Below, in pieces: positions 1,843-20,111 of a stretch of 20,873 nt of DNA (its first letter is position 1; each line of letters opens with the position of its first letter). The notes beneath the pieces were generated by a model that was not told the DNA's origin, searched no databases, and saw only the letters and a program-made list of their open reading frames with translations. The DNA lies in contig JAYGFR010000100.1 in assembly GCA_046581755.1 (NCBI GenBank), positions 1 to 20,873 on the forward strand, read 5' to 3'. The translations under genes were made by a program, and so were the position numbers. Source of the stretch: Nitrospinota bacterium (GTDB lineage Bacteria; UBA8248).

Positions 1843-2060
1843 TTTGCCGCTCCTCAAGCGTCGGTGATGGCGGCCACCGGCTCCCCAATCTTTCCTCATG
1901 AATAGGGCCGGGCGCCAATCATCGCTCTCTCAATCCCGGAATGAGGCCATCGCCGGCGGCATGGGCCACTCCAGGCAGGCGCCACGAGATTCGCTCACAG
2001 GGGACATGATTTGGGGCCGAATTCACGCCTCCCCCCCATGGCGGGAAACCACCGGGCCGC

Positions 2061-2489
2061 TTACGATTCGGCGGCGTCAAGAATCCGAAATTGAATCGGA
2101 AGATCGTCGCTGACGATTTGGGCCGCCTTCCGGACATCGGGGTTAAACAGGAGCGGGCCCTTGAGATTGGCCGTCATCAGTTGGGGATCTTCGGGAATCG
2201 TTACAATGGCCAGGGCCTGGTAATTTTCCGGCGAATCGATCTCGAGCGAGGCGGCCAAATCCTCCGAAATATCGAAAACGATGTCCGGAACCAGCCATTT
2301 TGGCTCGATGACAACAAAGGCCAATTTTACATTATCGAGGGACTGAAGCCACTGGAAAGGCTTTTTTTCCTCATCTTCGATCAAAACGAAACGCTTGAGG
2401 TCCGGAAGGCCGATGAGGCCTTCGGGGAAATCGATTATTTCTTCGTCGGATACTTGTATTTTTCCGAAAAGAGACGTTTCAATCTCCAT
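2061..2489 (-). CDS. fliW: Flagellar assembly factor FliW (CsrA antagonist)
   Basis: MEIETSLFG, IIDFPEGLIGL, FQWLQS, LAFVVIEP and MTANLKGPLLFN are hallmark FliW motifs. The gene overlaps the csrA 3' end; ATG 2489 has GAGG upstream. Confidence 0.93.
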   Translation of the reverse strand: MEIETSLFGKIQVSDEEIIDFPEGLIGLPDLKRFVLIEDEEKKPFQWLQSLDNVKLAFVVIEPKWLVPDIVFDISEDLAASLEIDSPENYQALAIVTIPEDPQLMTANLKGPLLFNPDVRKAAQIVSDDLPIQFRILDAAES

Positions 2490-2736
2490 CACCGCCTCTT
2501 CCAGAACGCATTCTGCTCCATAGGTCTGCCGCATTTTTCAGCTCCTGGGCGTCCACCCGAGAGGCCCGGTTGTTTTCTTCTTGAATCTTGTCGAATATTT
2601 CTCCGCGGTAGATTTTCGTATCGGCGGGCGCATCCACACCGATACGGACCTGGCGTCCCTTAACGTCCACGACCACCACGCGGATTTTGTCTCCCACCAT
2701 GATGGTTTCGTCGACTTTACGGGTAAGAATAAGCAC
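2479..2736 (-). CDS. csrA: Carbon storage regulator CsrA (long-tailed, FliW-partner type)
   Basis: (M)LILTRKVDETIMVGDKIRVVVVDVKGRQVRIGVDAPADTKIYRGEIFDKIQEEN. GTG start at 2736 with GGAG upstream. Confidence 0.95.
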   Translation of the reverse strand: MLILTRKVDETIMVGDKIRVVVVDVKGRQVRIGVDAPADTKIYRGEIFDKIQEENNRASRVDAQELKNAADLWSRMRSGRGGDGD

Positions 2737-2862
2737 GAGCCAATTCTCCAGTGCCGGGCTGCGGTGATATTCGTCGATTCCCGAAGAAAACCTCCTGTCG
2801 GCCGAGAAACTACACAATGAAACCCATGCGCACAAGGCGCACCGTTTAAAAACATCTTCCCG

Positions 2863-5733: not shown

Positions 5734-5759
5734 TTCCTACCGCTCCTCCAGACTCACCT

Positions 5760-7529
5760 TCATCTGATGATATCGATTACCTGCTGCAAAAGGTCGGTAA
5801 TCGTGGAAATTACCTTCGCGCTCGCCGCGAAGTTTTGCTGAAACAGGATGATGGTCACCATCTCTTCGTCGATCGATACGCCAGACACCTCCTCGCGGTT
5901 GGTATTCAGGGCGTCTTTTACCTGGCTGGTGACTTCCTGGCGGTCGGTAATGTTTCTGCTCAGAGAGCCAAAATTTGAAATAATTCCGTTCATGAAATCG
6001 CTGATCGTCGCCGTATTCCGGCCCGCAACGACATCCCCCCGCAGGTTGGCGAGTTTCAGGACGTTGGCGTTGTCTCCCGGGGAGCCCGGTACGCCGGCCG
6101 TGGCGATTTTACTGATGTCGGCCGCAAGGAGGTTGTTGAAGGCGAATTTCTTGGCGGCCCCCGTGCGGACGGAAACGGTGAAAGAATCCCCTGTTTGGGG
6201 GTCGCCGCTGAATTTTTGAACGACGATCCGGATTCCCTCGAATTCGGCCGTCACCGATCCGCCGGTAAAATTAAACGTGGTGACCGCCGGGTCCGTTCCC
6301 AGGGGACCTCCGTCAATCGACACCTGGGTGGCATTGAGCTTCTGGTTCGTGTCCGTGTCGGTGATGGTAAAGGTTGTCGAGGACGTAAATTCGAGTTTGT
6401 AATCCGCCATCGTGAGCGCCGTTGCGTCGAATATTTTTGAATTCGACAATACGGACTGTACATTGGGGTTGCCCGTCGCCACGTCCTTGCTGTTTGAACT
6501 GCCCCCCTTGAGGCTGACCTTAAGGGGCTGGAAAAAGTCCAGGTTGGTACTTCCGTCCAGGCCGAAACCCTGTTTATGGATGATGTTGACTTCGTTGACG
6601 ATGGTCGCCGCGATGGTGTTGATGTCGTCGAGGAGATTTTTCAGCGTCGTATCCCGGAATTCGAGCAATCCCCCGATTTTGCCGTTCGTAATCCGCGAAG
6701 AGATATCGATTCGCACATTACCCCGGTCTTCGAATAAAACGCGCTGAAGGGCAACCGGCGGCGTGTTCCCAACCACGTTGTTGGGGTTTTGCTCTCCAAC
6801 GAGTTTGTTGAATATTCTTTGTGAAACCAGGGGCGCACTTCTGCCGACGAAGATCAGCAATGAGCCGTTCGTCTCTTCAATAACGTTAACGTCCACTCGC
6901 TCGGAGAGATCCTCGAGAATTCGCCGGCGCTCGTCGCGAAGGTCGTTTTCGGTGTCTCCGCTGGCCTCGCCCACCAAAATATCGGAGTTTAACCGTGCGA
7001 TGCGCTCCGCAAACTGGTTCACCTCGTCGATGGCACGGGTGATATTCCGGTCGGCCCCGATCTGCAGGTCCTCGACCGCTTTGCCCAGGCGGTTGAACTT
7101 TTCCGCCAAAATTCCGGCCGCGTTGACCAAACCGTTTCGCTCGGCGGCGCCTTCGGGCGTGGTGCCTAAATCCTCGGCCGCCGCGAAGAATTTATTGATG
7201 GCGCCGGCGATTCCGCCCTCGGTTCCGGACTCGTTCAGGAAGGCTTCGGTGGCCAGGACTCCACTGGCCTGGGCGCTGAGGGAGCCGTCCTCGGATTTAA
7301 AGCGTGCTATTTGAGCGTTCAGGAACCGGTCCACTACCTGGCGGACCGTTTCGAGACGCACGCCGGTGCCAATAAATCCCGTCACCGGCGGATTATTGAC
7401 GAGGACGACCTCTTGACGCGAATAGCCCTCAACGCCGGCATTGGCGATATTATGGGCAACCGTCTGCAATGCCGCCTGGGTGACCAGGAGAGACTCTTTT
7501 CCGATGGTCAGTGCTGTCTGAAGTCCCAT
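5760..7529 (-). CDS. flgK: Flagellar hook-associated protein 1 FlgK
   Basis: AHNIANAGVEGYSRQ, GTGV, NDLRDER, GKIGGLLEFRD, and C-terminal VSGVSIDEEM...QQNFAASAKVI. Confidence 0.96.
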   Translation of the reverse strand: MGLQTALTIGKESLLVTQAALQTVAHNIANAGVEGYSRQEVVLVNNPPVTGFIGTGVRLETVRQVVDRFLNAQIARFKSEDGSLSAQASGVLATEAFLNESGTEGGIAGAINKFFAAAEDLGTTPEGAAERNGLVNAAGILAEKFNRLGKAVEDLQIGADRNITRAIDEVNQFAERIARLNSDILVGEASGDTENDLRDERRRILEDLSERVDVNVIEETNGSLLIFVGRSAPLVSQRIFNKLVGEQNPNNVVGNTPPVALQRVLFEDRGNVRIDISSRITNGKIGGLLEFRDTTLKNLLDDINTIAATIVNEVNIIHKQGFGLDGSTNLDFFQPLKVSLKGGSSNSKDVATGNPNVQSVLSNSKIFDATALTMADYKLEFTSSTTFTITDTDTNQKLNATQVSIDGGPLGTDPAVTTFNFTGGSVTAEFEGIRIVVQKFSGDPQTGDSFTVSVRTGAAKKFAFNNLLAADISKIATAGVPGSPGDNANVLKLANLRGDVVAGRNTATISDFMNGIISNFGSLSRNITDRQEVTSQVKDALNTNREEVSGVSIDEEMVTIILFQQNFAASAKVISTITDLLQQVIDIIR

Positions 7530-7550
7530 TTGCGCTTACCGCCTATGTCT

Positions 7551-8054
7551 CTAAACCGACTGAAAAATAAAATCGCCGCCCTGAACCCTTTTTTTGCCTA
7601 ACTTCCCCTCGATGCCGTACATCGCCGGATCGGCGAACGCCGACTGAACGGAGTCCATCACCCCGTTCATGACCGAAAGAAGTTCCCCGATAATTTGGCG
7701 GTTGATCTCGTTAACCTGCTTCACCCGATCGGTCGTCTCACGAAGGCGGCCGCGTACATTCATAAATCTTTTGGCCAGCGGAGGGGGGGTGTTCCGCACC
7801 AGGTCGATGAGGTGAAGGTTTTTGGTGTCCTGGCCCTGCTCGGAGGAGAGGACGGCCATCAGCCGGGTCCGCTCCTGCTCCAGGGCGCGGATGCGGTGGA
7901 CGACCTGGGCCTTCAAACCGATTTGCTCCTCGAAATTGGCGAACTTGGGGCGGCGCAGGACTTCCCTTTCCTTCAAGAGGATTCCCTCCAAATCCTCATA
8001 GGCCTCAAATTCTTTTTCGAGTACGTCGAGAAGATTCTCCGTATGATCATTCAT
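7551..8054 (-). CDS. flgN: Flagellar export chaperone FlgN
   Basis: Helical 167-aa protein with LE..R, N..N..(II) and a C-terminal YG..G motif; immediately upstream of flgK. Confidence 0.8.
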   Translation of the reverse strand: MNDHTENLLDVLEKEFEAYEDLEGILLKEREVLRRPKFANFEEQIGLKAQVVHRIRALEQERTRLMAVLSSEQGQDTKNLHLIDLVRNTPPPLAKRFMNVRGRLRETTDRVKQVNEINRQIIGELLSVMNGVMDSVQSAFADPAMYGIEGKLGKKRVQGGDFIFQSV

Positions 8055-8514
8055 AATATCCGCTCCCCGGTTGGGTCATCTCCGGACCGCCTGCCTCCGG
8101 TTTCCCGGCCGCATTTCGGGGTGGGGCGGAATCCTCCACTTTTCCCCCGTTGGGCACCAGGTTGGAGTAGCGCCTGGTCACGTCCTCCTTCCGGGTCAGT
8201 TGCTCATAAATGATCTTGGACATTCCGATGCCAGTTCCCTTCGAGACTTCCTTTGAAATCGCTTCGTCGAACATGCTTTCGAACCAATCCATGCTGAGGT
8301 TCTTCTCCATCAAGCCACTCTTGGGCACGCTCTTGCGCATTTCCTTCAAAAGCCGCTGAACGAACAAGGATTCGAAATCCTGGCTGAATTGCTTTATCTT
8401 GGCATCGTCGCCGCTCGCCTTTAGGGTCTCGATTTGTTTTGACAAGGAACCGGAATTTTGGAGGGTCATGGCCCGCAAGTGTTCGGGAGATACGTTGCCC
8501 AGATTTCCAATCAT
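8047..8514 (-). CDS. flgJ: Single-domain FlgJ (rod-binding/rod-cap domain, no muramidase)
   Basis: FESLFVQRLLKEMRKSVP...FESMFDE...GIGMSKIIYEQL. ATG 8514 with AGGAG upstream; lies after flgI. Confidence 0.88.
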   Translation of the reverse strand: MIGNLGNVSPEHLRAMTLQNSGSLSKQIETLKASGDDAKIKQFSQDFESLFVQRLLKEMRKSVPKSGLMEKNLSMDWFESMFDEAISKEVSKGTGIGMSKIIYEQLTRKEDVTRRYSNLVPNGGKVEDSAPPRNAAGKPEAGGPEMTQPGSGYYE

Positions 8515-8606
8515 TTCCCGCTCTCCTCGCCGGCCACAGCTTTTGCGAGTCAACCCGGGGCCGGCACTACAGCATGAACATTATGCGATCGGGCGCTCCG
8601 CGCGCC

Positions 8607-9746
8607 TTAAATCAATTTGATTTCGGCATCCAGGGCATTGGCCCCTTTGAGCGCCTGCAGGATGGCGATCAAGTCCCGCGGCGAGACCCCAATCGCATTG
8701 AGGCCCCGAACGACATCTCCGATGCTGACGGTTTTCTGCAAAACGACCAGGCTCCGTTTCTCCTGCGTCACCGTGATCTCCGTTTTCGGGATGATCTGGG
8801 TCTGCGCCGAATCCGGCGCAAATGCCTCGGGCTGAGAGACCAGGGAGTCTTCACGGATGACAATGTTGAGATTCCCGTGACTGATGGCCACGGTTGAGAT
8901 CCGCACGTTTTCGCCCATGACGATGGTGCCCGTCCGCTCGTTGATCACGACAATGGCCTTTCGGTCCGTTACGACCTCGATGCGCTCGATCTGGGCGATG
9001 GCCTGCACCGCGTTTTTGGCGATGCCCCGAAGGTTTATATCCACCGTCCCGGAATCCCGGGCCTGGGCCACCTGATCCCCGAAAGCGCCGTTGATCGCTG
9101 TCACGACCCGCGAGACGGTTGTAAAATCCGGACTATTGAGAGCAAGCCGGATCGCCTTCTGGCGCCAGAAATTTTGTCTGATTTCCTTCTCCACGCTCCC
9201 GCCATTCGTGATGAGTCCGACGGTGGGATGATTCCGCTGAACACCGGTCCCCGTGGCTCCGGCGAACGCGAACCCGCCTCCGAGCGAAACCGCCCCTTGC
9301 ACCACGACGTAGACCTCGCCATCCACTCCCCGAAGCGGACTCAAAAGGAGCGTTCCGCCGAGGAGGCTTTTGGCATCGCCGATGGTCGACACCGTTACAT
9401 CGACTCGCGAACCCACGCGGGCGAAAGGCGGCAAGTCGGCCGTCAGCGCCACCGCGGCCACGTTTTTCACGTTAAACGAGCTTGCGGGGGTATTGATGCC
9501 GAGTTTTTTCAGAAAGCTCGACAGCGACTGCGCCGTAAAAGACGGGTCGTTTCCATCGCCCGTCCCGTTGAGGCCGACAACGAGCCCGTAGCCGATGAGC
9601 TGGTTCGACCGGACCCCTTTGACCGTGGCGATATCCTTGAGGCGGACGGCCTTGGCGGTGCCCGAGAGGAACACCATCACCCCCAAGACAAGGGCGGAGA
9701 CAATGGCGGCCAGACGGAAGCGCCTATGCCAGCGGCAAATCTGCAT
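8607..9746 (-). CDS. flgI: Flagellar P-ring protein FlgI
   Basis: Signal peptide ending AKA, then RLKDIA..GVRSNQLIGYGLVVGLNGTGD, KNVAAV, VINERTGTIVMG and DLIAILQALK. Confidence 0.97.
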   Translation of the reverse strand: MQICRWHRRFRLAAIVSALVLGVMVFLSGTAKAVRLKDIATVKGVRSNQLIGYGLVVGLNGTGDGNDPSFTAQSLSSFLKKLGINTPASSFNVKNVAAVALTADLPPFARVGSRVDVTVSTIGDAKSLLGGTLLLSPLRGVDGEVYVVVQGAVSLGGGFAFAGATGTGVQRNHPTVGLITNGGSVEKEIRQNFWRQKAIRLALNSPDFTTVSRVVTAINGAFGDQVAQARDSGTVDINLRGIAKNAVQAIAQIERIEVVTDRKAIVVINERTGTIVMGENVRISTVAISHGNLNIVIREDSLVSQPEAFAPDSAQTQIIPKTEITVTQEKRSLVVLQKTVSIGDVVRGLNAIGVSPRDLIAILQALKGANALDAEIKLI

Positions 9747-9760
9747 TTCCAAATTACCCT

Positions 9761-10552
9761 CTAGAACGGCCATAGTTTCGTAACAACGCGTGTCAGCCAC
9801 CCCGGCGACTGGGCTTCTTCGAGAATGCCGTCGCCCGTGTAGACGATTTTGGCATCCGCCATGAACTTGGATTGGATAGTGTTGTCCTGCGCTATGTCCT
9901 GCGGGCGGATAATTCCGCTCAACATGACGATCAGGGTCTCCTTTTGGGTCGTGAGCTCCTTTCGTCCCTCGATGAACAGATTGCCGTTCGGGAGCACTTC
10001 CACCACCTGGGCGGAAATGGTCGCGGTCAGATTGTCCGTCCGCTCGACATCCGTCTCGGCACTGTGATCGACCTTCGAAGTGGTCCGCAGGGCGTCGGAG
10101 GGGTCAAACCGCCTCGCCCGCGAACCGACGTTGGTGTTCGTCGGTTCGCCGTATCCCGGCAGGGACGGGACGGTAAAGGTCAGGTTGCTTTGCCTGTCGA
10201 TAGAGGTATCGGCTTCTTTCTTCGAGTTCGATGACTCGCTGATGAGCACCGTAATAATGTCGCCCACGCGGGAGGCGCGTTTGTCCGTGAAGAAAAACGG
10301 GCTTCGATCGCTCCAGAGGGAGCCTTTATCCCGCCCGTCCAGGGAGGCGAATACGCCCTTCTTCCCCGATTGGCCGGTTGGGCGCGCGGGCCGGGTCCGA
10401 CGAAACGACTGGACGCTCCGGAAGCGCTTGGAGCCCCGCGACACTGTCTCCCTTCCTCCGGCGGGCTGCCCGTTGCTCTCAGGTGCGCTCACCGCAATCA
10501 AGGATAAGGAAAGCAACGAACAACCTATCGAACGGATAATGATGAGTCGCAT
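9761..10552 (-). CDS. flgH: Flagellar L-ring protein FlgH
   Basis: GSLW, DKRASRVGDIITVLISE, VVEVLPNGNLFIEG, LSGIIRPQDI, ADAKIVYTG, C-terminal PGWL...WPF. The start is uncertain (ATG 10552 preferred over TTG 10579). Confidence 0.95.
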   Translation of the reverse strand: MRLIIIRSIGCSLLSLSLIAVSAPESNGQPAGGRETVSRGSKRFRSVQSFRRTRPARPTGQSGKKGVFASLDGRDKGSLWSDRSPFFFTDKRASRVGDIITVLISESSNSKKEADTSIDRQSNLTFTVPSLPGYGEPTNTNVGSRARRFDPSDALRTTSKVDHSAETDVERTDNLTATISAQVVEVLPNGNLFIEGRKELTTQKETLIVMLSGIIRPQDIAQDNTIQSKFMADAKIVYTGDGILEEAQSPGWLTRVVTKLWPF

Positions 10553-10562
10553 GGCAAGTACC

Positions 10563-11534
10563 CTAGAAAAGGACTTCAACGGAGGAAGCTCCTACGATAC
10601 GGGCGTGAACCGGCTTTTTCGAGTCGATGTTGATCACGCGGATCAAATCGCCTTTTCGTCCGGCGTCCAATGATTTTCCGATAGCCGTGATGGACAGCCC
10701 CCCACTGCGGGCGCTGATATGAACCAAATGCCCCCGCTTCACGAGATAGGGGAATTTGACATCCGACTTTCGAACCATGCTCCCCGGGCTGATCGCCCGG
10801 ATGGCAATTGCGCCATGGAACTCTGGCACGGATGTGATGGTATCCGAGGGCATGGAAGCCATGTCCTGCCGGCGAAACTCGAAATCGGCCGCCTTCAAGG
10901 TCTCCATGGCCCGGATTGGCCTGCGGGCAACCGGAACATCCATGTAAATGGCGATCTCGGCGGTTACCCAAATTCGGCGAATTTCGGATGCCCCTCGAAT
11001 GACCCTCAAAATCAAGGGGGTCCGCCCGATAAAGCGGGTGTTGGGCGGAGCCTGTACCGTCAGTTGAACATTCCCGCCGCCCGGCAGAAGAATTCTTTGC
11101 CTGGGAACGAAGATCGTTTTGATCTCGACATCCCCGTTCCGGTTGATCAGGCGGGAATTCAAAAAGCTCTGAACCGCGGAAACCATCTCTTGCTGATCCA
11201 ATATCCGGGTGCTGTTCCGCACCCGAACCACACGCGCCCCCGCCAGGGTGACGCCCTCGATTCCAGCATTCCGGATGGACTTGCCCACTGTTTCGCGGCT
11301 GATCCGGAAACTCATGCCCGAAGGAGGGGCGGAAGCCAGGAAAACATCCTCGAGTTCGCCCCTGATCCTGCGCGATACTTTCGATAAATTTGCCACCTCC
11401 GCCAGAAACACCTCGCCCTCGTTCACTTCGACGGATGGGATGAGGCGGATTTCCACTGCCCCGGAGATGGCGGGAGCAACGGCTGAAATCGCAACGAAAA
11501 TCGCCAGAATGATGCGCGGGATCAAGGTTCGCAT
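10563..11534 (-). CDS. flgA: Flagellar P-ring chaperone FlgA
   Basis: Signal peptide, SAF-like region (VPVARRPI...L...D), then LVKRG..V, G..L..G..GDLIRVINIDSKK. ATG 11534 with AAGGAG. Confidence 0.92.
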   Translation of the reverse strand: MRTLIPRIILAIFVAISAVAPAISGAVEIRLIPSVEVNEGEVFLAEVANLSKVSRRIRGELEDVFLASAPPSGMSFRISRETVGKSIRNAGIEGVTLAGARVVRVRNSTRILDQQEMVSAVQSFLNSRLINRNGDVEIKTIFVPRQRILLPGGGNVQLTVQAPPNTRFIGRTPLILRVIRGASEIRRIWVTAEIAIYMDVPVARRPIRAMETLKAADFEFRRQDMASMPSDTITSVPEFHGAIAIRAISPGSMVRKSDVKFPYLVKRGHLVHISARSGGLSITAIGKSLDAGRKGDLIRVINIDSKKPVHARIVGASSVEVLF

Positions 11535-11544
11535 TTTCAGCTCC

Positions 11545-12333
11545 TTATCGCTTGAGATCCGAAACTGTTCGAAGCATTTCATCGGCGGTCTGAACCGTGC
11601 GGCTATTGATTTCATAGGCCCGCTGGGCCTCAATCAGGGCGACGAGTTCATCGACGACCTTAACGTTGGAGTTTTCCACGAATCCCTGGGCGATGGTCCC
11701 GAACCCCTGCGTTCCGGGGGTTCCGGTCAAGGGAGCGCCCGATGCGGTGGTTTCGAGAAGCAGGTTCCGGCCCACGGAGTTCAAACCGGCTGGATTCTGG
11801 AATTTCACCAAGGTAAGGGTGCCAACGGTGGTGGGCGCCGTTGAGCCGGCATTGATGACCGACACCGTCCCGTCGGTTCCGATCGTAACGTTGAGCGCCG
11901 TCGTGGGAATCGTAACCCCCGGCGTAATGCGGAAGCCTTCGCTGGTCACGAGCTCCCCGGTGCTATTCACCTTGAAGGCGCCGGAGCGGGAATAAGCCGT
12001 TTGCCCGGTGGGCAGGGTGACCTGGAAGAAGCCGTCGCCTTCGATGGCGACATCCAGTTCGTTATCTGTCCGCTTGAATTCGCCTTCGGTGAAAATCCGC
12101 GACGTGGACGCGGGCCGGACGCCGGCTCCGATTTGAAGGCCCGTGGGAATCTGGTTTCCCTGGGCGGACGGCGCGCCCGCCGGAATAATGGTTTCGTAAA
12201 GCAGTTCCTGGAAATCGGCGCGCGATTTCTTGAAACCGATTGTGCTGACGTTCGCCAGGTTGTTCGCGATGACATCGACGTTGATCTGCTGGGCCTGCAT
12301 TCCCGTGGCCCCGGTGAACAATGCTCGTAACAA
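11545..12333 (-). CDS. flgG: Flagellar distal rod protein FlgG
   Basis: MLRALFTGATGMQAQQ..VDVIANNLANV, FQELLY, DVAIEGDGFFQV, QGFVENSNV...LIEAQRAYEINS. TTG start with GAGGAGG. Confidence 0.97.
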   Translation of the reverse strand: MLRALFTGATGMQAQQINVDVIANNLANVSTIGFKKSRADFQELLYETIIPAGAPSAQGNQIPTGLQIGAGVRPASTSRIFTEGEFKRTDNELDVAIEGDGFFQVTLPTGQTAYSRSGAFKVNSTGELVTSEGFRITPGVTIPTTALNVTIGTDGTVSVINAGSTAPTTVGTLTLVKFQNPAGLNSVGRNLLLETTASGAPLTGTPGTQGFGTIAQGFVENSNVKVVDELVALIEAQRAYEINSRTVQTADEMLRTVSDLKR

Positions 12334-12358
12334 GGCTCTTCCTCCTCAGGTGCGAAAT

Positions 12359-13126
12359 CTATTGAATCTCCTCGACTCGGCCCAGGTCGTTAACCGCCCG
12401 GTCATCGATCGAATCAAAGGTTTTGATTGTTTTCTGATAAGTCTCATACAGGCGGCCAATTTCAATTAGCTTCACCATCTCTGCGATGGCATTCACGTTG
12501 GAGCCTTCGATATATCCCTGCAAGATATCGGTCGATTCCGGCTTAAAGGTTGCCTGGCCGGGAACGACCGTGGAGAAGCTGGAAAAACCCCGCTTCTCAA
12601 GAGCATAGGGCTTGGGAAAATCGATGATTTGAACTTGCCCGACAACCTCGCCGTTCGAGTAAACCTGCCCGGTCTGGTTGATGAAGATTCCGCTATTTTG
12701 GGAGCTGGCATTCGGAACCCGGATTTCCCCGTTGTCCACGCCCAGCACGGGCCAGCCCTGATTCGCGATCATGACCCCGTCGCGGTTCAGCCCGAACTGC
12801 CCCGCTCTGGAATATCGGAGGCCGCCGGGCGACCTGAGAACGAAAAAACCATCGCCGTTCAGGGCAAGATCCAAGGGATTGTTGGTTTTTCTGAAGCTGC
12901 CCTGCTTGTAATTAATGTGGGTAAACCTCCAGGCCGACTGCTGCACGACATCATCGCCCAATGCGCTGCCCTGACCGGCCGTCTTGGAAGTTTTTTCAAT
13001 ACGAAACACGGGGACATCGGCCTTGTATCCGGGAGTATTCACCTGGGCCAGATTGTTCGCCACGATCTCGAGGCGCCGCTGCTGGAGCATCGCTGCGCCG
13101 ACGACTGCATAAGATCCTGGTTCCAT
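12359..13126 (-). CDS. flgF: Flagellar proximal rod protein FlgF
   Basis: IVANNLAQVNTPGYK, TNNPLDLALNGDGFF, YSRAGQF, QGYIEGSNVNAIAEM. It precedes flgG. ATG 13126 is chosen because the longer ORF start lies upstream of the sigma54 promoter. Confidence 0.9.
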   Translation of the reverse strand: MEPGSYAVVGAAMLQQRRLEIVANNLAQVNTPGYKADVPVFRIEKTSKTAGQGSALGDDVVQQSAWRFTHINYKQGSFRKTNNPLDLALNGDGFFVLRSPGGLRYSRAGQFGLNRDGVMIANQGWPVLGVDNGEIRVPNASSQNSGIFINQTGQVYSNGEVVGQVQIIDFPKPYALEKRGFSSFSTVVPGQATFKPESTDILQGYIEGSNVNAIAEMVKLIEIGRLYETYQKTIKTFDSIDDRAVNDLGRVEEIQ

Positions 13127-13216
13127 ACCGTTTACCCTTCCTGGAGAGGATTCCGAATAATCCGCGCTCTCGGACGGGACGCCTCCTCGGGGCCGGTCCG
13201 ATTGACTCATAGGAAG

Positions 13217-13233
13217 AGCAAGAGATGTGCCAG
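13217..13233 (-). promoter_or_regulatory. Sigma54 (-24/-12) promoter of the flgF operon
   Basis: The minus strand reads CTGGCAC-ATCTC-TTGCT, an exact TGGCAC-N5-TTGCW consensus, 90 nt upstream of the flgF ATG. Confidence 0.88.
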
Positions 13234-13281
13234 AGTTGCAGGAGGGAGAGGACTGCAATGCTAAATATTGTATGCTTTTAT

Positions 13282-13294
13282 TTTCAACATGTTA
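13282..13294. promoter_or_regulatory. Candidate IHF site in an AT-rich tract upstream of the sigma54 promoter
   Basis: TTTCAACATGTTA versus WATCAANNNNTTR (one mismatch), inside the strongly AT-rich stretch 13262-13328 and about 50 nt upstream of the -24 box. Confidence 0.5.
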
Positions 13295-13489
13295 CATGTA
13301 TTTAACGATAATTTACTTAAAACATACATGCCCCCGGAAACCGCCCATGGCACTATTTGCCGATGGATTTTTGACGCTGGAGCAGGTTTTGCCGCCCTCA
13401 TTTTCATTGGACGATTTCGGGCGCCCGGGCCGGAGTCTCCGCCCCACCCTGTTTTCCTATCGGCCCGGCCTGCGTTCCCACCGGAGGAG

Positions 13490-13792
13490 TCAGGCGGCGT
13501 TTTCCCGCTTCCATTTTTCGTTGACGAAATAGATAAAAGCCAGGATTTCCGCGATCAGGCGGTAGAGGGAGGGAGGTATCTCGGTTTCAAGCTCCAGCTT
13601 TCCCAAAAGATGCGTCAAATCCGCATCCTCGCGAATGGGGATATTGTGAATCCGCGCTAGTTCGAGAATCCGCTCGGCATCCTCCCCGATCCCCTTGGCC
13701 GTCACCCGGGGAGCGCTCTCCGCCAACGGGCGGTATTGAAGCGCAACCGCCTCCTTGGGAATAAATTCTCGAAGCTTGCGGTGTTCCTCCAT
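13490..13792 (-). CDS. FlhB C-terminal-like protein (stand-alone EscU/YscU/FlhB cytoplasmic-domain family)
   Basis: AVALQY...APRVTAKG.G..AERILELAR.HNIPIRED..L...L..LE...EIPPSLY..IAEILAFIY. Confidence 0.9.
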   Translation of the reverse strand: MEEHRKLREFIPKEAVALQYRPLAESAPRVTAKGIGEDAERILELARIHNIPIREDADLTHLLGKLELETEIPPSLYRLIAEILAFIYFVNEKWKRENAA

Positions 13793-13801
13793 GGTTTCCC
13801 C

Positions 13802-15739
13802 TCAAACTCTTAGATTAATAAAGGATTGCTCGCCCGATGGGGCCTCCGGATCCAGGGTGGGCACCAGCGGCTCCCCCTCGGGCCGGGCATGAATCCAGGA
13901 GAGCCCTTCGATGAGGAATTCCTGGCCCTCCATCGCATCGCGCAGGGCGGGAAGCTCGGCCTCGATGAACCGTCCCACCTCCTCGATTTGGGTGGTGAAC
14001 CGGGCATGAACATGCTTTCCGCGCACCCCGGCGTCCACCCGGAGCGGGCCAAGCCCCTGAAGCTCCAGCAGGAACACCACCGAATGCTGCTCGTCCTCCC
14101 CGCCGCCCGCCTGGCGGCCCTCCCCGTCCCGGCGGACGACCACATCCAACGTCCCCTTCTCGCCCCCGAACGAAAACGGGATATGGGAATAACTCCCCTG
14201 ATCGAGGATGTGGCGCAGCCCGTTCGCCGTCCGGAGGAATTCAACCGACGTGAGCGCCTGCTCGGCCTGGCCGCTGAGCTGGGACAGGGCGTTCCCCTCC
14301 GGAAGGCCGGCCTCGCGCACCGCTCTGAGGAACGATTGGAGATTTTCCCGAAGGTCCGGGGCGGCTCCCCCCCTGCCCCCGGGCGCGGCCTGATCCATCG
14401 AGGGCAACGAGCCCCCCTGCTGAATCGCCTCGCGGACCCTTCCGGGCGAAAGGCCATCCTCCTTGAGAACCGCCCGGTTCAAGGCCTCCATCAAATCCTC
14501 CGCGGCCTGGCCCGCCCCGCCCGGGACAGCCCGGTTGGCCGCGGCCAGCCCCTCGGCCAGGGAGATCAAATCGGACCCGAATCCCGAATTCCCCGCGCCT
14601 CCCGCGGGCAAATACGCGCCTCCCGCGCTCTGGGCGGCGGGCGCGAGGAGGACCAGATCGAGCAAGGGCGCCGTCCGGTTGACGAAAACGCGGACCGTGC
14701 TTCCGGCGGGAAAGGTGCTCGCCGCCTCGGGCGGCCAGGGAACCTCGGCATCGAACCCCCCGAAGCGGAGCAAGGCCGTGCGCCCGCCATCGGCCCCCGC
14801 CCTGGCGGACCCACCCGCTCTCGAAGCGCTTCCCGCCGCCGGGGCGGCTCCCGCGCCCCTGCCGGGCGCTCCTGGTATCGGAGGGCTTTGTCCCCCCGGG
14901 AATGGCTGGGGCGGATTGAGGGGATTGGGAGGAGCGCCTGACGGAGACTGTGGCCCGCCCGGAGGAAAAACCGCGCCCGTGGCCCCTGTTCCCGTGGCCC
15001 CTGGACTCCCGGCCCCGCCCGCCTGGGCCGGCATGACCCGGACAACCGTTCCCGTCAAAACCGTGCCCCGCACCGGAAGTCCGCCCGCCGCCGGGGCGGC
15101 CCGCGTCAGCGGCCCCGCCCCGAGAATCTGCATCCGGCCGGCCGGGCCGGCCAGGCCCGGGGCCGATCGGGGCCCTCCCCTTGCCAACACCCGCAGGCCG
15201 AGCGCGCCGCCCGCTGTCTGAGGCCGGATGAACAGCCGGTCTCCGCTTTTCGCCCCGCTGTCGAGCTGGAAATTCACCTGGAGCGAGCCGAGGCGCACCG
15301 GCGCCGAGCCCGGATTTTTGAAATCGAGAATCTGGCCGAGAATCGTCCCCCTCGCCTTCCCCAAAAGCGACTGGAGCCCCGCCGTCAACGGCTGGTTCCG
15401 GGCCAGGCGCACCTGCCCCGGAGCGAGCGCCTCGAAGGCATCGCCCGGCCGCCCGGACTGGGCCACGAGGCGGAGGATCTGGCCCTTGCCCTTCCCCCCG
15501 GCCTCGGCCTCGGCCGCCACCCGCTCTCCCGGCTGAAGCGGAAACGCCGCACGGATCAAGACCGTTGTGCCCTGATCGAGCGCCAAAAGAACCGCGCCCA
15601 TGGGCGAGCCCGGAGGAGCGGCCAGCACCGATGCCGAAAAGATTTGGCCCACGGGAAGCTGTGGCGTTTCCCCCGCGGGCGGCAGCGCCAGAGAGGCGGC
15701 CACGCCCGCAACGGGAACCTGGATAGGAGTATTCGGCAT
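13802..15739 (-). CDS. FliK-like hook-length-control family protein
   Basis: Low-complexity G/A/P-rich body. The C-terminal FLLELQGLGPLRVD...VHARF...IEAELPALRDAM..F resembles the FliK C-terminal domain. It is adjacent to the FlhB-like gene, a common pairing. Confidence 0.7.
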   Translation of the reverse strand: MPNTPIQVPVAGVAASLALPPAGETPQLPVGQIFSASVLAAPPGSPMGAVLLALDQGTTVLIRAAFPLQPGERVAAEAEAGGKGKGQILRLVAQSGRPGDAFEALAPGQVRLARNQPLTAGLQSLLGKARGTILGQILDFKNPGSAPVRLGSLQVNFQLDSGAKSGDRLFIRPQTAGGALGLRVLARGGPRSAPGLAGPAGRMQILGAGPLTRAAPAAGGLPVRGTVLTGTVVRVMPAQAGGAGSPGATGTGATGAVFPPGGPQSPSGAPPNPLNPPQPFPGGQSPPIPGAPGRGAGAAPAAGSASRAGGSARAGADGGRTALLRFGGFDAEVPWPPEAASTFPAGSTVRVFVNRTAPLLDLVLLAPAAQSAGGAYLPAGGAGNSGFGSDLISLAEGLAAANRAVPGGAGQAAEDLMEALNRAVLKEDGLSPGRVREAIQQGGSLPSMDQAAPGGRGGAAPDLRENLQSFLRAVREAGLPEGNALSQLSGQAEQALTSVEFLRTANGLRHILDQGSYSHIPFSFGGEKGTLDVVVRRDGEGRQAGGGEDEQHSVVFLLELQGLGPLRVDAGVRGKHVHARFTTQIEEVGRFIEAELPALRDAMEGQEFLIEGLSWIHARPEGEPLVPTLDPEAPSGEQSFINLRV

Positions 15740-15778
15740 TATGCCGCAGGTTTGCTCAGTAAAATAACGGGCGCCGGG

Positions 15779-16108
15779 CTAGACCACCACATTAATGAGC
15801 CGGCCCTGGAGATCGTTATCGTCGTGGAAGGTGGAACTCTCCCCCTCACCGGGGGCGGGTTCGGAATCGGGCTCCCGCTTGTTTTCGCTGGCCTCATACT
15901 CCTGGCCCTGGCGGCCCTCCTCGTCCACGTTGGGGTTTTCCGATTCCGCGGTTTCGTTCACGATTTCGGTCCGCATCTGCCGATCCTTGGCCGCATCTCC
16001 GGCGATCGAATGCTGCGCATTCACACCGGCGTTCTGAAGCTGGCTCTGCACCTTCTCCGCCGCCGTGATCTGCGGACTCGAGAGCGGAAAGCTGATCTCA
16101 ACGGCCAT
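15779..16108 (-). CDS. Small acidic hypothetical protein, probably flagellum-associated
   Basis: 109-aa ORF co-oriented with the FliK-like gene. Q-rich N-half, E-rich linker, C-terminal GRLINVVV; preceded by a sigma28-like promoter. Confidence 0.65.
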   Translation of the reverse strand: MAVEISFPLSSPQITAAEKVQSQLQNAGVNAQHSIAGDAAKDRQMRTEIVNETAESENPNVDEEGRQGQEYEASENKREPDSEPAPGEGESSTFHDDNDLQGRLINVVV

Positions 16109-16544: not shown

Positions 16545-17246
16545 CTACCGCACCTCGATCATGACGACGTAGGGCGATAGCTCGCGGAATATCTCGGTCG
16601 GGGTCTGCTTTCGCTTCCGGACGCGGACCTGAACGTCAAATTTCTCCACCGCGGGCACCTGCTCCAGAATCAGGGCCGCCGCCGCCGCTTTGACGCCAAA
16701 ACGGACGCCCTCGACTCCTCTTTGCACAAGTCCCGCCAGCGCAACGCCCACGAGCTCCCCCTTTTCGTTCACGATGGGCCCCCCGCTGTTTCCAGCGTTA
16801 ATCGGCGCGGTAGTCCGGAACTGGGAGATATTGTCGCTCATCCCCGTTGTGGCGCTGATTTCGCCGGACACCATGCTTGGTTTCCGGCTCAGCCGCGTTC
16901 CGAGCGGATAGCCCAGCGCATGGATTCGCTCGCCCACCGAGACCCGCACCCCGAACCGGAAGCCGAACCCATCCGGCCTGGGCCGCATCTTTTGAAGTTC
17001 GACCACGGCAAGGTCGTTTTTTTTATCCGTGGCAACCACTCGGCCCCGGTAGCGCTCCCCGTTGGGGAAACTCACCTGGATGACCTTTGCCTTCTCGATG
17101 ACGTGGTTGTTCGTCAGAATGTGGCGGCTGTTTCTGATGTAGAACCCCGAGCTCGATGAGCGCCACTCCCCCCGCCCCAGCGGAGGCGGCGGAATTTCAA
17201 TCCTCGCCCGCCGCCCGGCCGGGCTTCCGGCTTGACAGGGAAGACA
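16545..17246 (-). pseudogene. Trypsin-like (S1C/HtrA-type) serine protease domain, 5'-truncated at the IS3 end
   Basis: The frame stays open upstream of the ORF-track GTG: SSGFYI...ILTNNHVI (His), NDLAVV (Asp), INAGNSGGP (Ser). There is no ATG/GTG/TTG upstream of the His before the IS3 terminus. Confidence 0.75.
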
Positions 17247-17275
17247 GTCGCTGCCCCCGGTAGTGATACCACTCC

Positions 17276-17599
17276 CTATGTTACCCTAGAAGCCAATGCT
17301 GGAGGGCGGAGCAGAGCGAAGCCCGGAGGCATTGGCTCTATCGTCTCAGGCGCCGGCGGCCTGTAGCCGAGTGCGCTGTGGGGCCTGATGCGGTTGTATT
17401 CATGCCTCCACCTTTCCGCCAGCACTTTCGCCTCATCGAGCGTATCGAAGAACTCTCGGTTCAATAGCTCATCCCGCATCTTCCCGATGAAGGATTCCAC
17501 ATAGCCGTTCTCCCAGGGGCTGCCCGGCTCGATGAAGAGTGTCTCCACCCCGAGGCGTGAGAGCCACCCCCTCACCCGGCGAGCAGTGAACTCAGGGCC
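17276..17599 (-). pseudogene. IS3-family transposase OrfB, 3' fragment
   Basis: GPEFTARRVRGWL...FIEPGSPWENGYVESFIGKMRDELLN...WRHEYNRIRPHSALGYRPPAP. Confidence 0.92.
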
Positions 17600-17763
17600 C
17601 TAGTACATCACGAACGATGTCAGGATCGGTGGATGAGGCAGTTGGCTTAGAAGATGAGCCGGCGGAGCGAGCGAAGCCGGCTCATCCAAAGCGGTGGTCA
17701 TGGTTGGCAAGTGCTCCCCTAAGATGGGCTCTGCCCGACTCTCAAGCAAGAGGAGCGCCAGCC

Positions 17764-19020
17764 ATGACCCATGTGAAGTCTACCATCGAGGAGAGCGTCT
17801 TGGTCGCCATTGATATCGCCAAAGCGCGCAACCACGTTCTTATCGACCCTCCGGGCGGATCACCCCGAAAGCGTTTCAAGATGGCCAACGCAGCAAGAGA
17901 CTTCCGGGATTTTGCGGTTTACCTCAAGGGCTTCGCCCTGCCGGTTCGCGTCGGCTTCGAGGCCACGGGCAACTACCACAGGCCGCTGGCTCACTTTCTC
18001 CTGACCCAGGGCTTCGAGGTGCGGCTAATCTCTTCGGTGGCGCTGGCTAGGACCCGCGAGGCCATGCACAACTCCTGGGACAAGAACGATCCCAAGGACG
18101 CCCAGGTAATTCTCCATCTGCTCAAGGTTGGCCTGACGCAGATCTATCACGACCCGCTCTTTCGCGGCATCAACGACGCCCAGGAGCTCTCCAAGACCTA
18201 CCATCAGGTGTCCCTGGAGAAGACCCGCGTCCAGCACAGGCTTTTGACCCACTATCTGCCCTTCTATTTCCCGGAGGCGCAGACCTACCACCACTCGGCC
18301 CGCTCAGAGTGGCTGTTCCGTCTGCTCCTCGCATTTCCCATCCCGACCAGTATCCCCCGCCTGGGCGAGGAGGCGTTTATCGCCCAGGCGGGGGACGTGG
18401 TGGGCCGCAAGGTCAACAAAGCCCGCATACTGGCGGACTTCTACCGGACGGCCTTGGAATCCATCGGCCTGCCGGTGGCCGAGGACTCTCAAGCCGTAGC
18501 CATGTTCCGCCTCGTCCTGGGGGAATATCTCACCCTCTGCCAGCTGAGAGGCCAGATCGAGCAGACGGCATGCGATTTTTTCAAAGAAGATGCGGACTAC
18601 TTTCGGCTCACCCAGGTGCCCGGCATCGCCCTCACCATACTGGCCGAAGCCGGCGACCTGAGGCGGTTCTCTCACCACAGGCAGTTCCTCAAGTTCTGCG
18701 GGCTCGACCTGTCCACCCGACAGTCCGGGCGGTTCCGGGGGGCGACCAAGCTCTCCAAGTATGGCAACGCCAGGCTGCGCTCGGCGTTCTGGATGGCCGC
18801 CAGCGCCGCGGTCCGGCTGCGCGAGAACAGCTTCCGCGCGAAGTTCGACCGCTATATCCGGCACAACCCCCAAGACCCGGACCTCAAGCGCAAGGCCTAT
18901 TGCGCGGTGGCCGCCAAGGTGGCCCGGGTCGTCCATGGATTGATCAAGAACGGGACCGACTATCGCCCCTACCACGAGGAGGCGATACCAAGTGGAGGAG
19001 TCCGCTCAGGAGGGCCATAG
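17764..19020 (+). CDS. IS110-family DEDD recombinase/transposase (418 aa)
   Basis: VAIDIAK (D), FEATGNYH (E), DKNDPKDA (D,D), Tnp domain GL...QSG, SKYGNARLRSAFW, AVAAKVARVVH. ATG 17764 with AGGAG. Confidence 0.95.
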   Translation: MTHVKSTIEESVLVAIDIAKARNHVLIDPPGGSPRKRFKMANAARDFRDFAVYLKGFALPVRVGFEATGNYHRPLAHFLLTQGFEVRLISSVALARTREAMHNSWDKNDPKDAQVILHLLKVGLTQIYHDPLFRGINDAQELSKTYHQVSLEKTRVQHRLLTHYLPFYFPEAQTYHHSARSEWLFRLLLAFPIPTSIPRLGEEAFIAQAGDVVGRKVNKARILADFYRTALESIGLPVAEDSQAVAMFRLVLGEYLTLCQLRGQIEQTACDFFKEDADYFRLTQVPGIALTILAEAGDLRRFSHHRQFLKFCGLDLSTRQSGRFRGATKLSKYGNARLRSAFWMAASAAVRLRENSFRAKFDRYIRHNPQDPDLKRKAYCAVAAKVARVVHGLIKNGTDYRPYHEEAIPSGGVRSGGP

Positions 19021-19200
19021 AGGCGAATTCGACCTAGTAGACAATGCTCGGACCTTCCACTTGGGCGCGTATTTTGTTTTGAGTACGGTGAAGACCACGG
19101 CCGATACCGATGGATCTTGTGTCACTATGGTCAAGAGCGAAGCCCACAACCGGTGGAAGCCACTTGGACTGGACCACAACAAAAACGCCTCGTTCGAGGC
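18988..19200 (+). ncRNA. Putative bridge RNA / seekRNA of the IS110 element
   Basis: A stem CCAAGTGGAGG-A-GTCCG / CGGACCTTCCACTTGG encloses guides AGGGCCAT and GACAATG, which match the insertion target. A second loop with the same spacing matches the circle junction. The RNA ends are unknown. Confidence 0.75.
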
Positions 19201-19229
19201 AAGGGGGACTTGCTGACCCAAGACCGCCA

Positions 19230-19235
19230 TTGACA
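19230..19235 (+). promoter_or_regulatory. Outward-facing -35 box (TTGACA) at the IS110 right end
   Basis: Perfect TTGACA 13 nt from the end. In the circular form it lies 17 nt from TACATC (17604-17609). Confidence 0.6.
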
Positions 19236-19248
19236 CCGCAGTTAGTAC

Positions 19249-19593
19249 GTTGTCCGAGCGGATATGGCCCGGAACGCCAAGCCGGACGAAGAGTTCTGTC
19301 AGACGGTCCAGAACATCCTCGGACGTGAGCTTTCTGGCCACATCTATCGACAGACACTCCCGCGTGAACTCATCCACCACCACGAGCATCCGAACCGGGC
19401 GTCCATCCCGCGTGCGTTCCACACAGAAGTCATACGCACACACATGATTCCGTCTCTCGGGCCTCCTCCTCACGCATGAACCATCATTCAGCCAGAGCCA
19501 TCCCCGCTTGGGCTGTCTCCGGGGAATCTTGAGGCCCTCTCTTCGCCAGATCCTCTCTACACGCTTGTGGTTCACCCGCCAGCCCTCATGCCT
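19249..19593 (-). pseudogene. IS3-family transposase OrfB, 5' fragment (N-terminally truncated)
   Basis: EGWRVNHKRVERIWRREGLKIPRRQPKRGWLWLNDGSC...NHVCAYDF...VVDEFTRECL...PGHIRSDN. Confidence 0.92.
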
Positions 19594-19676
19594 TCCGCGC
19601 GTCCGAATCTCCGGGCCAGGGCGCATCCCCCCTTCAATCTCCCCCTCCCCGGCTCCGGGCCCGGCTCATGGCCGGC

Positions 19677-20111
19677 TCAGGGAAGGCAGAGCCGATCCAG
19701 CCCGATCACGGCCTCAGCCTCGATCTCGACCAGGAAATCCGGGTCCGCCAGGCGCGAAACGCCCAGGAGCGTGCTCGTCGGGGCGGGATGGGTGAAATAC
19801 TCGAATCGCACATCCTGGCAGCGGAAATACTCGTCCACGTCGGTCGTATACGTCACCGTGCGCACCACGTTCGAAAAATCCGCGCCCACGTGCTCGAGCC
19901 CCGCGCGGATGCACTCGCACACCGCGCGGATCTGGGCGCGCATATCCCCCCTGCCGATCGCCTCCCCCCCCGGCCCGGCCGCCACCTGGCCCGCGATATG
20001 GACCCGCGCATGATCGGACGCCTCGACGACGATGACAGACGAGTAAATCGGATTCCCGCCGATGACGCGGGCGAACATTCCCTCGGGCATGAGATGGTGG
20101 ACCTGGAACAT
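19677..20111 (-). CDS. RidA/YjgF/UK114-family protein
   Basis: YS, IAGQVA, GDMRAQ, VVR, R.EYF...PTSTLLGVSRLADPDFLVEIEAEAV. Strong RBS AAGGAGG. Confidence 0.9.
   Translation of the reverse strand: MFQVHHLMPEGMFARVIGGNPIYSSVIVVEASDHARVHIAGQVAAGPGGEAIGRGDMRAQIRAVCECIRAGLEHVGADFSNVVRTVTYTTDVDEYFRCQDVRFEYFTHPAPTSTLLGVSRLADPDFLVEIEAEAVIGLDRLCLP

Follow-up and report, generated by a model that had tools for sequence, protein, structure and literature searches.

An IS110-family element antisense at the catalytic codons of an IS3 transposase remnant, and the target site and predicted bridge RNA of its clade

The insertion and its host at the locus

The window analysed here is the whole of contig JAYGFR010000100.1 from a Nitrospinota bacterium assembly (GCA_046581755.1), 20,873 nucleotides (nt) in length, and it harbors an insertion sequence (IS) of the IS110 family within what is left of an IS3-family transposase gene. 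Removal of positions 17600-19248 (1,649 bp) yields an open minus-strand frame of the IS3 gene orfB (...GHIRSDN GPEF...), and the IS110 element lies antisense to this gene at S-D-N|G-P-E-F. At the junctions, CAGGGCC ends at 17599, CTAGTAC begins at 17600, TTAGTAC ends at 19248, and GTTGTCC begins at 19249. An IS110 insertion into the DDE motif of an IS3 transposase had been proposed for this DNA in an earlier note, and it was confirmed here, with the junction strings where that note had placed them.

The half of the host transposase past the second catalytic Asp (GPEF...WENG...E) is encoded on the minus strand at 17276..17599 and matched PF13683 (rve_3, E=2e-27) and positions 284-366 of the IS3 model NF033516. 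The part of orfB up to the second catalytic Asp, at 19251..19593 on the same strand, matched rve, HTH_21, and NF033516 positions 160-283. A right-end remnant of the host is found at 17247..17275 (minus strand), where homology to many other IS3 remnants of the same genome (G000) begins at 17251; IS3 ends canonically terminate in CA, and this remnant lacks it. The orfA gene, the left end, and the start of orfB are absent and the right end is altered, and the window's host IS3 is a remnant, past whose 5' break lies a RidA-family gene (19677-20111). No intact host of the same subgroup was found among the 400 contigs of G000, a genome assembly in which repeats are often unassembled, and a search of this genome found the IS110 element to be single-copy.

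In the register adopted below, the element spans 17602-19250 and reads on the plus strand, as do all of its parts. It is preceded by a left core dinucleotide, CT (17600..17601; GT or AT in homologues), which homologue cores and empty alleles suggest to be target-derived. The left non-coding end of 162 nt (17602..17763) holds the right-donor site AGT, a degraded sub-terminal repeat, and a hairpin (17653-17686), and contains no target guides. The recombinase gene (17764..19020) encodes 418 amino acids (aa) and matched PF01548, PF02371, and NF033542, the last with 194 bits against a cut-off of 140. Residues D17, E66, D109, D112, and S321 are intact, are invariant across 13 aligned sequences, and line up with the catalytic residues of IS621 (the alignment to IS621 used P0002, a 422-aa, 91% homologue of the window recombinase). 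Four residues are deleted after G287 in a helix-hairpin-helix-like PGIGP motif, which is kept in full in 117 of 120 proteins and is intact in P0002. Downstream lie the predicted bridge RNA and the remaining right non-coding end (19136..19248), which finishes in the left-donor site TAGTAC and is followed by the right core GT (19249..19250), probably donor-derived.

Due to the four-residue deletion, the degraded sub-terminal repeat (5/18, among the two weakest), the unusual core, and the 5'-truncated host, the window copy is probably a decayed, population-wide relic. Contigs from the DNA runs of four studies contain the same insertion, the same C in the left core (identical in all four DNA runs with contigs over this position), and the same deletion, which rules out an assembly artefact for the deletion or the junctions; a fifth DNA run agrees with the window over 17610-19700. 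No empty site or circle joint was found in the contigs of eight runs, and such contigs drop rare forms and show presence only. One RNA-library contig is identical to the window over 19145-19260 and then enters another IS3 at the matching codons (...GLPEHIRSDN, translated by hand), so at least two insertions have been made by the window element or a sibling very close to it. RNA-library contigs from three studies cover parts of the 3' end as well as coding and host stretches, at a depth of 2-8, and we do not take them as expression.

Target codons and core dinucleotide across the clade

We examined the closest 79 of 556 confirmed genome relatives, 3 plasmid copies, and the closest 80 of 241 metagenome relatives. 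In tblastn searches with the host protein, the match breaks at the end of residue 115 or the start of residue 116 at 50 of the 79 genome loci, all on the strand opposite to the element (hand count), a share much higher than chance would give; of the remaining genome loci, 20 gave no hit and 9 gave hits without an exact 115/116 boundary. Set 1, comprising 69 events from the 82 genome and plasmid loci after removal of duplicates and with one tandem event set aside, reads Asp-Asn (D-N) at the right junction in 52 of 53 cases; the left junction continues with Gly in 58 of 60. Set 2, drawn from the 80 metagenome loci (60 unique flanks) with ends defined by element-side letters only, has D-N at 42 of 43 right junctions, followed by Gly in 43 of 50 cases and by Asp in the other 7. 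By their record titles, the relatives come from at least five phyla (Acidobacteriota, Pseudomonadota, Nitrospirota, Planctomycetota, and Bdellovibrionota). We consider it very probable that members of this clade lie, in antisense orientation, at the Asp-Asn-Gly codons that include the second catalytic Asp of DDE transposases and are likely guided there by a bridge RNA.

The hosts themselves were classified by their best NCBIfam matches, using C-terminal halves with at least 30 open codons; since these are half-proteins, the matches lie below curated cut-offs. Among 55 such halves, 43 best matched IS3, 1 IS2, 7 IS481, and 1 a gmhA-like model, with 3 giving no match, and nearly all of them begin at one and the same profile column. 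The earlier note had named unrelated flanks in other copies as the observation that would count against its proposal; this check was run, and D-N-G flanks were found in two independent sets instead. Its predicted flank logo, GAYAAY^GGNCC, holds for GAY, AAY, and GGN, but the CC is not fixed, as the codon after Gly varies among hosts (P, T, A, or S). Similarly, its proposal that the lineage uses the catalytic codons of IS3 stands for IS3 but not for IS3 alone, given the IS481-like hosts (7/55) and others annotated as ISNCY or DDE transposases.

The two junctions differ in the bases next to the flank. The base after the left flank is G in 37 and A in 23 cases of set 1, the corresponding dinucleotide in set 2 is GT in 33 and AT in 17, and the base varies even among copies of one element (L049, L053-L055). 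The right junction, in contrast, is constant, with G in 52 of 53 cases (set 1) and GT in 43 of 43 (set 2), and right and left cores differ by Fisher's test (p=1e-6 and 6e-6). An empty allele (L088) equals a filled one (L024) over 40 nt on both sides and carries A, as on the left of L024, not G, as on its right. One more empty/filled pair of this kind was found in genome G004 (99%, left side only), and a further flank (L078) is ambiguous, matching a G allele at 40/40 and an A allele at 39/40 positions. From this asymmetry and the empty alleles we infer a 2-nt core whose left copy would come from the target and whose right copy (GT) from the donor, which matches the cutting of top strands 3' of the core described for IS621 in the available portions of PMC11208158.

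This places the element at 17602-19250 and displaces the statement, in the earlier note, that there is no duplication beyond one shared C: that one-base register is ruled out by the L088/L024 pair and the junction counts at homologues, which point to a 2-nt core of asymmetric origin. The claim that excision restores SDN|GPEF likewise holds as an open frame when 17600-19248 is removed, but the corrected register yields S-D-K-G-P-E-F. Either the original target carried AAG or a base changed later. The window's left core, CT, occurs nowhere else in a count of 110 homologous left cores.

Several loci depart from the simple pattern. One insertion (L074:1032-1361) lies off-target in a gmhA/SIS-domain gene at a site that resembles the motif. 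At L003 (compared with L030), at L047, and at L171, the left and right flanks belong to different host families, which points to mis-assembly or to a rearrangement between copies. In L018-L022 (junction 1367) and in G006:C14, as identified via L212-L214, a pair of distinct clade members with about 60% similarity to the query stands in tandem. The tandem joint of L018-L022 is a perfect donor-type junction in chromosomal DNA, and the outer flanks of the pair, G-S-E-F-T on the left and I-R-S-D-N on the right, seem to stem from two hosts. This suggests that one element inserted at a right junction already present, or that two elements recombined with deletion of the DNA between them. Finally, a bin labelled as an archaeon (L064, L066; G007) carries an element at least 90% identical to Afipia copies, and this is likely bin contamination.

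Predicted bridge RNA and its match to the target

The 3' ends of 35 element types were aligned and yielded two stem-closed internal loops. Across 26 named pairs, 96.8% of cells are paired and 18 of the 26 show double changes; none of 500 shuffles scored as high and slid controls reached 34-53%, although these counts were taken on the same alignment that yielded the structure. Four predicted guides sit in the internal loops in the order known from IS621, with the target loop preceding the donor loop. Segments of the first loop (GNGCCRT and GAYAAT) spell the target, and segments of the second (AG(T/G)AC and (G/A)(C/T)TAT) spell both element ends. In the window, the predicted target-binding loop spans 18988..19064, with a putative left target guide GGGCCAT at 19012..19018 (family GNGCCRT), matching the antisense of AAY GGN CC, and a putative right target guide GACAAT at 19040..19045 (family GATAAT, 87/92), equal to the Asp-Asn codons. 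The predicted donor-binding loop spans 19070..19135, its limits being approximate and taken from the alignment, and would contain the left donor guide AGTAC (19082-19086) and the right donor guide ACTAT (19124-19128). The 5' stem of the target loop and the left guide overlap the last 11 recombinase codons (18988-19020), and many homologous recombinases end in Gly-Pro-stop spelled by the left guide itself.

Covariation links these segments to the element ends. In 35 of 35 types, the column of the left donor guide has the same letter as donor position -3 (T, G, or A), and of 262 columns it has the highest mutual information; the right donor guide complements donor positions +2 and +3 in 30 of 30 each. 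The sequence GAYAAY is found in the right end of 38/38 element types versus the left end of 3/38, which rules out a bridge RNA in the left end; the median non-coding lengths are 238 nt on the right and 135 nt on the left. A search of 17200-19700 against Rfam retrieved no relevant family, with one chance microRNA match (E=0.56). A candidate junction promoter, TTGACA at 19230-19235, was rejected because it is not general in the clade; a hexamer starting with TTG occurs in 8 of 38 right ends. In a metagenome sub-lineage (L119, L128-L132, L135-L144, L150), the right end was not found within 290 nt, and an extra long GC-rich hairpin follows the RNA.

The guides were compared with their targets in a table of 92 events. 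At the non-synonymous positions of the D, N, and G codons, the right guide is paired in 71-72 of 72 events and the left guide in 91, 89, and 92 of 92 (positions -2, -1, and second core base). At the third position of Asp, a guide U stands opposite G 56 times and opposite A 11 times, and at the third position of Asn a guide G stands opposite G 55 times and opposite A 32 times. This pattern fits G-U/G-T wobble of the kind reported for other bridge interfaces in bioRxiv 10.64898/2026.03.19.712850. In one sub-lineage (L120, L121, L139), the left guide reads CCGTCGT and the element sits at D-N-D; there, guide and target both have T at position -2 in 3 of 3 events, a combination seen in 0 of the 89 others. 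We regard this target covariation as a hint and not as strong evidence. Searches with the D-N-D host halves found no match in Pfam or NCBIfam; we label them DDE/ISNCY after the annotation of plasmid proteins 59-61% identical to them and after a 33% match to a D-N-G host.

By analogy with IS621, the element would excise as a circle and make the RNA, whose left guide would pair with the host coding strand over AAY GGN CC and whose right guide would pair with the other strand over GAY AAY. Top strands would be cut 3' of the two-base core, leaving the target core on the left and the donor GT on the right with no duplication. A guide U or G at the third positions of Asp and Asn may read both synonymous codons by wobble, and the third position of Gly and the next codon may simply tolerate mismatches. 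Wobble at synonymous positions would let the guide follow an amino-acid motif common to many mobile elements, and the D-N-G motif would in turn offer a constant supply of dispensable landing sites.

We would like to note several points that weigh against this account. Only the closest relatives (79 of 556 and 80 of 241) were sampled, and the ends in set 1 were placed with target-side letters at some loci (a CC preference; 10 + 3 relaxed loci). The bridge RNA, the guides, the circle, and the recombination are predictions from sequence. The single-sequence fold of the window is unremarkable (z=-1.8) and departs from the consensus inside a loop, and a sigma-70 scan of the linear element found no promoter, with none evident at the junction either. 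The donor covariation amounts to about 2-3 independent changes on the tree. In the guide-target table, two left guides are misparsed (L057, L064). Wobble does not extend to the third position of Gly or to the next codon, with mismatches in 41/92 events at -3 and 43/92 at -4, and guide-target covariation at -4 is weak (p=0.02, with kin not independent). These counts do not distinguish wobble from plain mismatch tolerance, and the p-value for target covariation overstates its case because the 3 events come from one sub-lineage, two of them from apparently related samples.

Host occupancy, relationships within IS110, and alternative readings

Each insertion splits one host catalytic domain. In the earlier note's conjecture, the site would be a safe harbour and insertion would disable a competing IS. 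Occupancy varies among genomes. In G005, all 5 of 5 identical host copies are filled, and in G001 7 of 8 matches are, among them every one of the 4 copies at >=97%. By contrast, G007 has 3 of 11 matches filled (7 empty, 1 empty by eye) and G004 has 2 of 9 (4 empty, 3 not resolved), so that most host copies are empty in 2 of the 4 genomes tested. Many empty sites were also seen in G003, and G001 has two empty copies of another IS3. Among 40 relatives, the search for further copies retrieved one partial homologue (G037), with no usable end.

The filled sets in G005 and G001, together with a site that destroys the catalytic core and a guide that appears to track a change in the host motif, could speak for an anti-transposon homing system kept for the benefit of the cell, which turns every resident DDE copy inactive. 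We find this doubtful. The many empty copies in G007, G004, and G003 do not fit it, nor do the two empty copies of another IS3 kept in G001 or the 5'-truncated host of the window, and sets consisting only of filled copies may be one nested element copied by a transposase acting in trans, or an assembly collapse.

Such copying is the substance of a second reading, in which the IS110 element would choose DDE genes because intact host ends let other host copies move the nested unit and thereby spread the IS110 element as a passenger. In its favour, several places in G001 and G005 carry filled copies whose identical flanks stay homologous for about 390-420 nt, close to where the host ends; the same picture would result, however, if identical copies had each been entered independently, and G005 has no empty identical copy to supply the transposase. 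IS3 transposases, moreover, act preferentially in cis. We regard hitch-hiking as rather improbable.

With respect to placement, the window recombinase is 57% identical to that of ISRel25 and 19% to that of ISEc21, and by sequence it belongs to the IS110 clade of ISRel25, ISMex12, and ISYps2, three elements that share one tree row in supplementary table 1 of PMC11208160. Quick trees, from which ISYps2 itself was left out, recovered the ISRel25-type clade as one group (support 100), with Bacillota elements lacking DDE flanks as its sister in the best trees (SH-like approximate likelihood ratio test, SH-aLRT, 90-93) and ISEc21 far off. ISMex12 was represented by an unannotated M. extorquens AM1 copy (L112), its label inferred from a supplement sequence. 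The IS1111 group was represented by ISKpn2 and IS1383, labels that we assigned provisionally from the order of the source table of PMC11187229. The placement proposed in the earlier note, relative to ISEc21 and IS1111, was carried out and put the clade far from ISEc21 and, in the best tree, apart from ISKpn2 and IS1383. The ISRel25 copy (L111) occupies an S-D-N|G-T-E-L site and has the same RNA layout as the window clade, and the AM1 copy also lies at S-D-N|G.

That an IS110 element can sit at the second D of the IS3 DDE motif is already published: ISEc21 does so (PMC11187229, in its available portions), as the earlier note had stated, and the behaviour of the window clade is a variant of it. 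ISEc21 and ISMch6 share with it the second-D codons of IS3, the lack of a duplication, RNA guidance, and a bottom-strand guide 5' of the top-strand guide (PMC11187229). Unlike the window clade, ISEc21 has a recombinase of 358 aa (about 410-430 aa in the clade), carries its non-coding region and RNA upstream (5') rather than downstream (3'), lies on the same strand as the IS3 gene rather than the opposite one, and has flanks H-S-D..G-S-Q rather than D-N-G or D-N-D; the clade's hosts also extend beyond IS3 to IS481-like and ISNCY-annotated genes. The ISEc21 subgroup is marked by 345-385 aa and an upstream region; here we found 418 aa, and guides downstream in 38 of 38 types. The earlier note's separate lineage with a longer recombinase is thus borne out by the 19% identity to ISEc21 and the differences in RNA position, strand, and motif.

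Several features common to IS110 elements are present, namely a DEDD RuvC domain and a Tnp20 domain with catalytic Ser, a specific target, a short core, and no duplication, along with a bridge/seek RNA predicted computationally from structure and covariation. Similar to IS621, the clade has the DEDD and serine set, a target loop followed by a donor loop with left and right target guides (LTG, RTG) and donor guides (LDG, RDG), and a two-base core that always has T as its second base and is cut on its 3' side (PMC11208158). It differs from IS621 in having the RNA in the right end, a core of RT/GT rather than CT, apparently shorter guides, a recombinase about 90 aa longer, and a protein-coding motif as target where IS621 targets repetitive extragenic palindromic (REP) DNA. 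With the IS1111 group (IS4321/IS5075, IS1383, ISKpn4) it shares the 3' RNA and may share a sub-terminal inverted repeat, imperfect in the window clade: at one offset the repeat is 54% complementary versus 22-31% at nine others, and own-partner pairs number 270/456 versus a shuffled maximum of 245, kin not being independent in either count. IS1111 recombinases, in contrast, have 330-350 aa with G-L-P....S/T-G, where the window clade has 410-430 aa and G-L-D-L-S-T-x-Q-S-G without the Pro, and the IS1111 top-strand guide lies 5' of the bottom-strand guide, where the clade has the IS110-type order as defined in PMC11187229. Several IS1111 members target other mobile elements, judging by the reference titles in PMC11208160.

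Targeting of DDE codons is likely, though not proven, to be convergent with ISEc21. Inheritance from a common ancestor with ISEc21 would fit the closeness of the two insertion points, which lie no more than about one base from a shared codon boundary, and a tree joining the clade with the whole ISEc21 group survives the approximately unbiased (AU) test (p=0.10), as does one joining it with two IS1111-type proteins (p=0.14). We give this reading little credence, however: the best trees separate the groups and offer a sister without DDE flanks, trees that unite only the DDE-targeting members are rejected (p=9e-5) because the non-DDE relatives L206 and L207 nest with ISEc21, and the two differ in orientation, RNA end, motif, and most of their protein sequence (19% identity). 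Loosely specific or protein-directed insertion, with the pattern arising from survival in dispensable IS genes, has in its favour the off-target gmhA-like gene (L074) and the many guide-target mismatches at -4 and -3, but it is highly improbable, since survival cannot account for a single codon boundary and a single orientation in almost every event, the L074 site is still motif-like, and RNA segments covary with both donor ends and the D-N-D target.

The convergence reading suggests that RNA-guided elements arrived at the catalytic codons of DDE transposases on two occasions, once from each strand. The fullest picture would be a cross-phylum RNA-guided hunter of DDE active sites, whose guide acts as a degenerate primer by wobble, enters several IS families, has been re-aimed at D-N-D, and serves as a saturating homing suppressor, all independently of ISEc21; we offer it tentatively and think that, as a whole, it is unlikely to be right. 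What the analysis provides is a target and a complete predicted bridge RNA for a large, named, uncharacterised IS110 clade, estimated at about 820 stretches in GTDB representatives. By combining IS1111 traits (3' RNA, imperfect repeat) with the long protein and guide order of IS110, the clade is informative for the subdivision of the family, the hundreds of natural guide-target pairs form a map of wobble and mismatch tolerance useful for recombinase engineering, and the variable occupancy makes conflict between mobile elements directly testable. In the papers searched, we found no description of ISRel25, ISMex12, or ISYps2 targeting DDE codons or having a 3' bridge RNA, and ISfinder/TnPedia or online logos may hold the DNA consensus. 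In their available portions, PMC11208160, PMC11208158, PMC13626964, and PMC3297565 do not describe the target of this clade, and neither does bioRxiv 10.64898/2026.10.21.760802, whose main text makes no mention of IS3. The source data of PMC11187229 include 10 unique insertions of ISMex12 and 5 of ISRel25, for which DNA logos probably exist in its online repository.

Elsewhere in the window, positions 109-16108 hold what we take, by eye from the open reading frame (ORF) list, to be a flagellar cluster with fliW, csrA, flgL, flgK, flgN, flgJ, flgI, flgH, flgA, flgG, flgF, a fliK-like gene, and a tetratricopeptide repeat (TPR)-methyltransferase. A trypsin-like protease fragment (16545-17075) lies near the host remnant, and the start of an ORF at the contig end (20620-20873) is transposase-like and presumably akin to the IS256 family; its 84-aa piece retrieved no NCBIfam match. 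The fragment and this ORF mark the region as a pile of mobile remnants. The sequence GAGCGAAGCC is found in three copies, at 17314-17323 (host 3' end), 17669-17678 (left-end hairpin), and 19135-19144 (directly after the donor loop).

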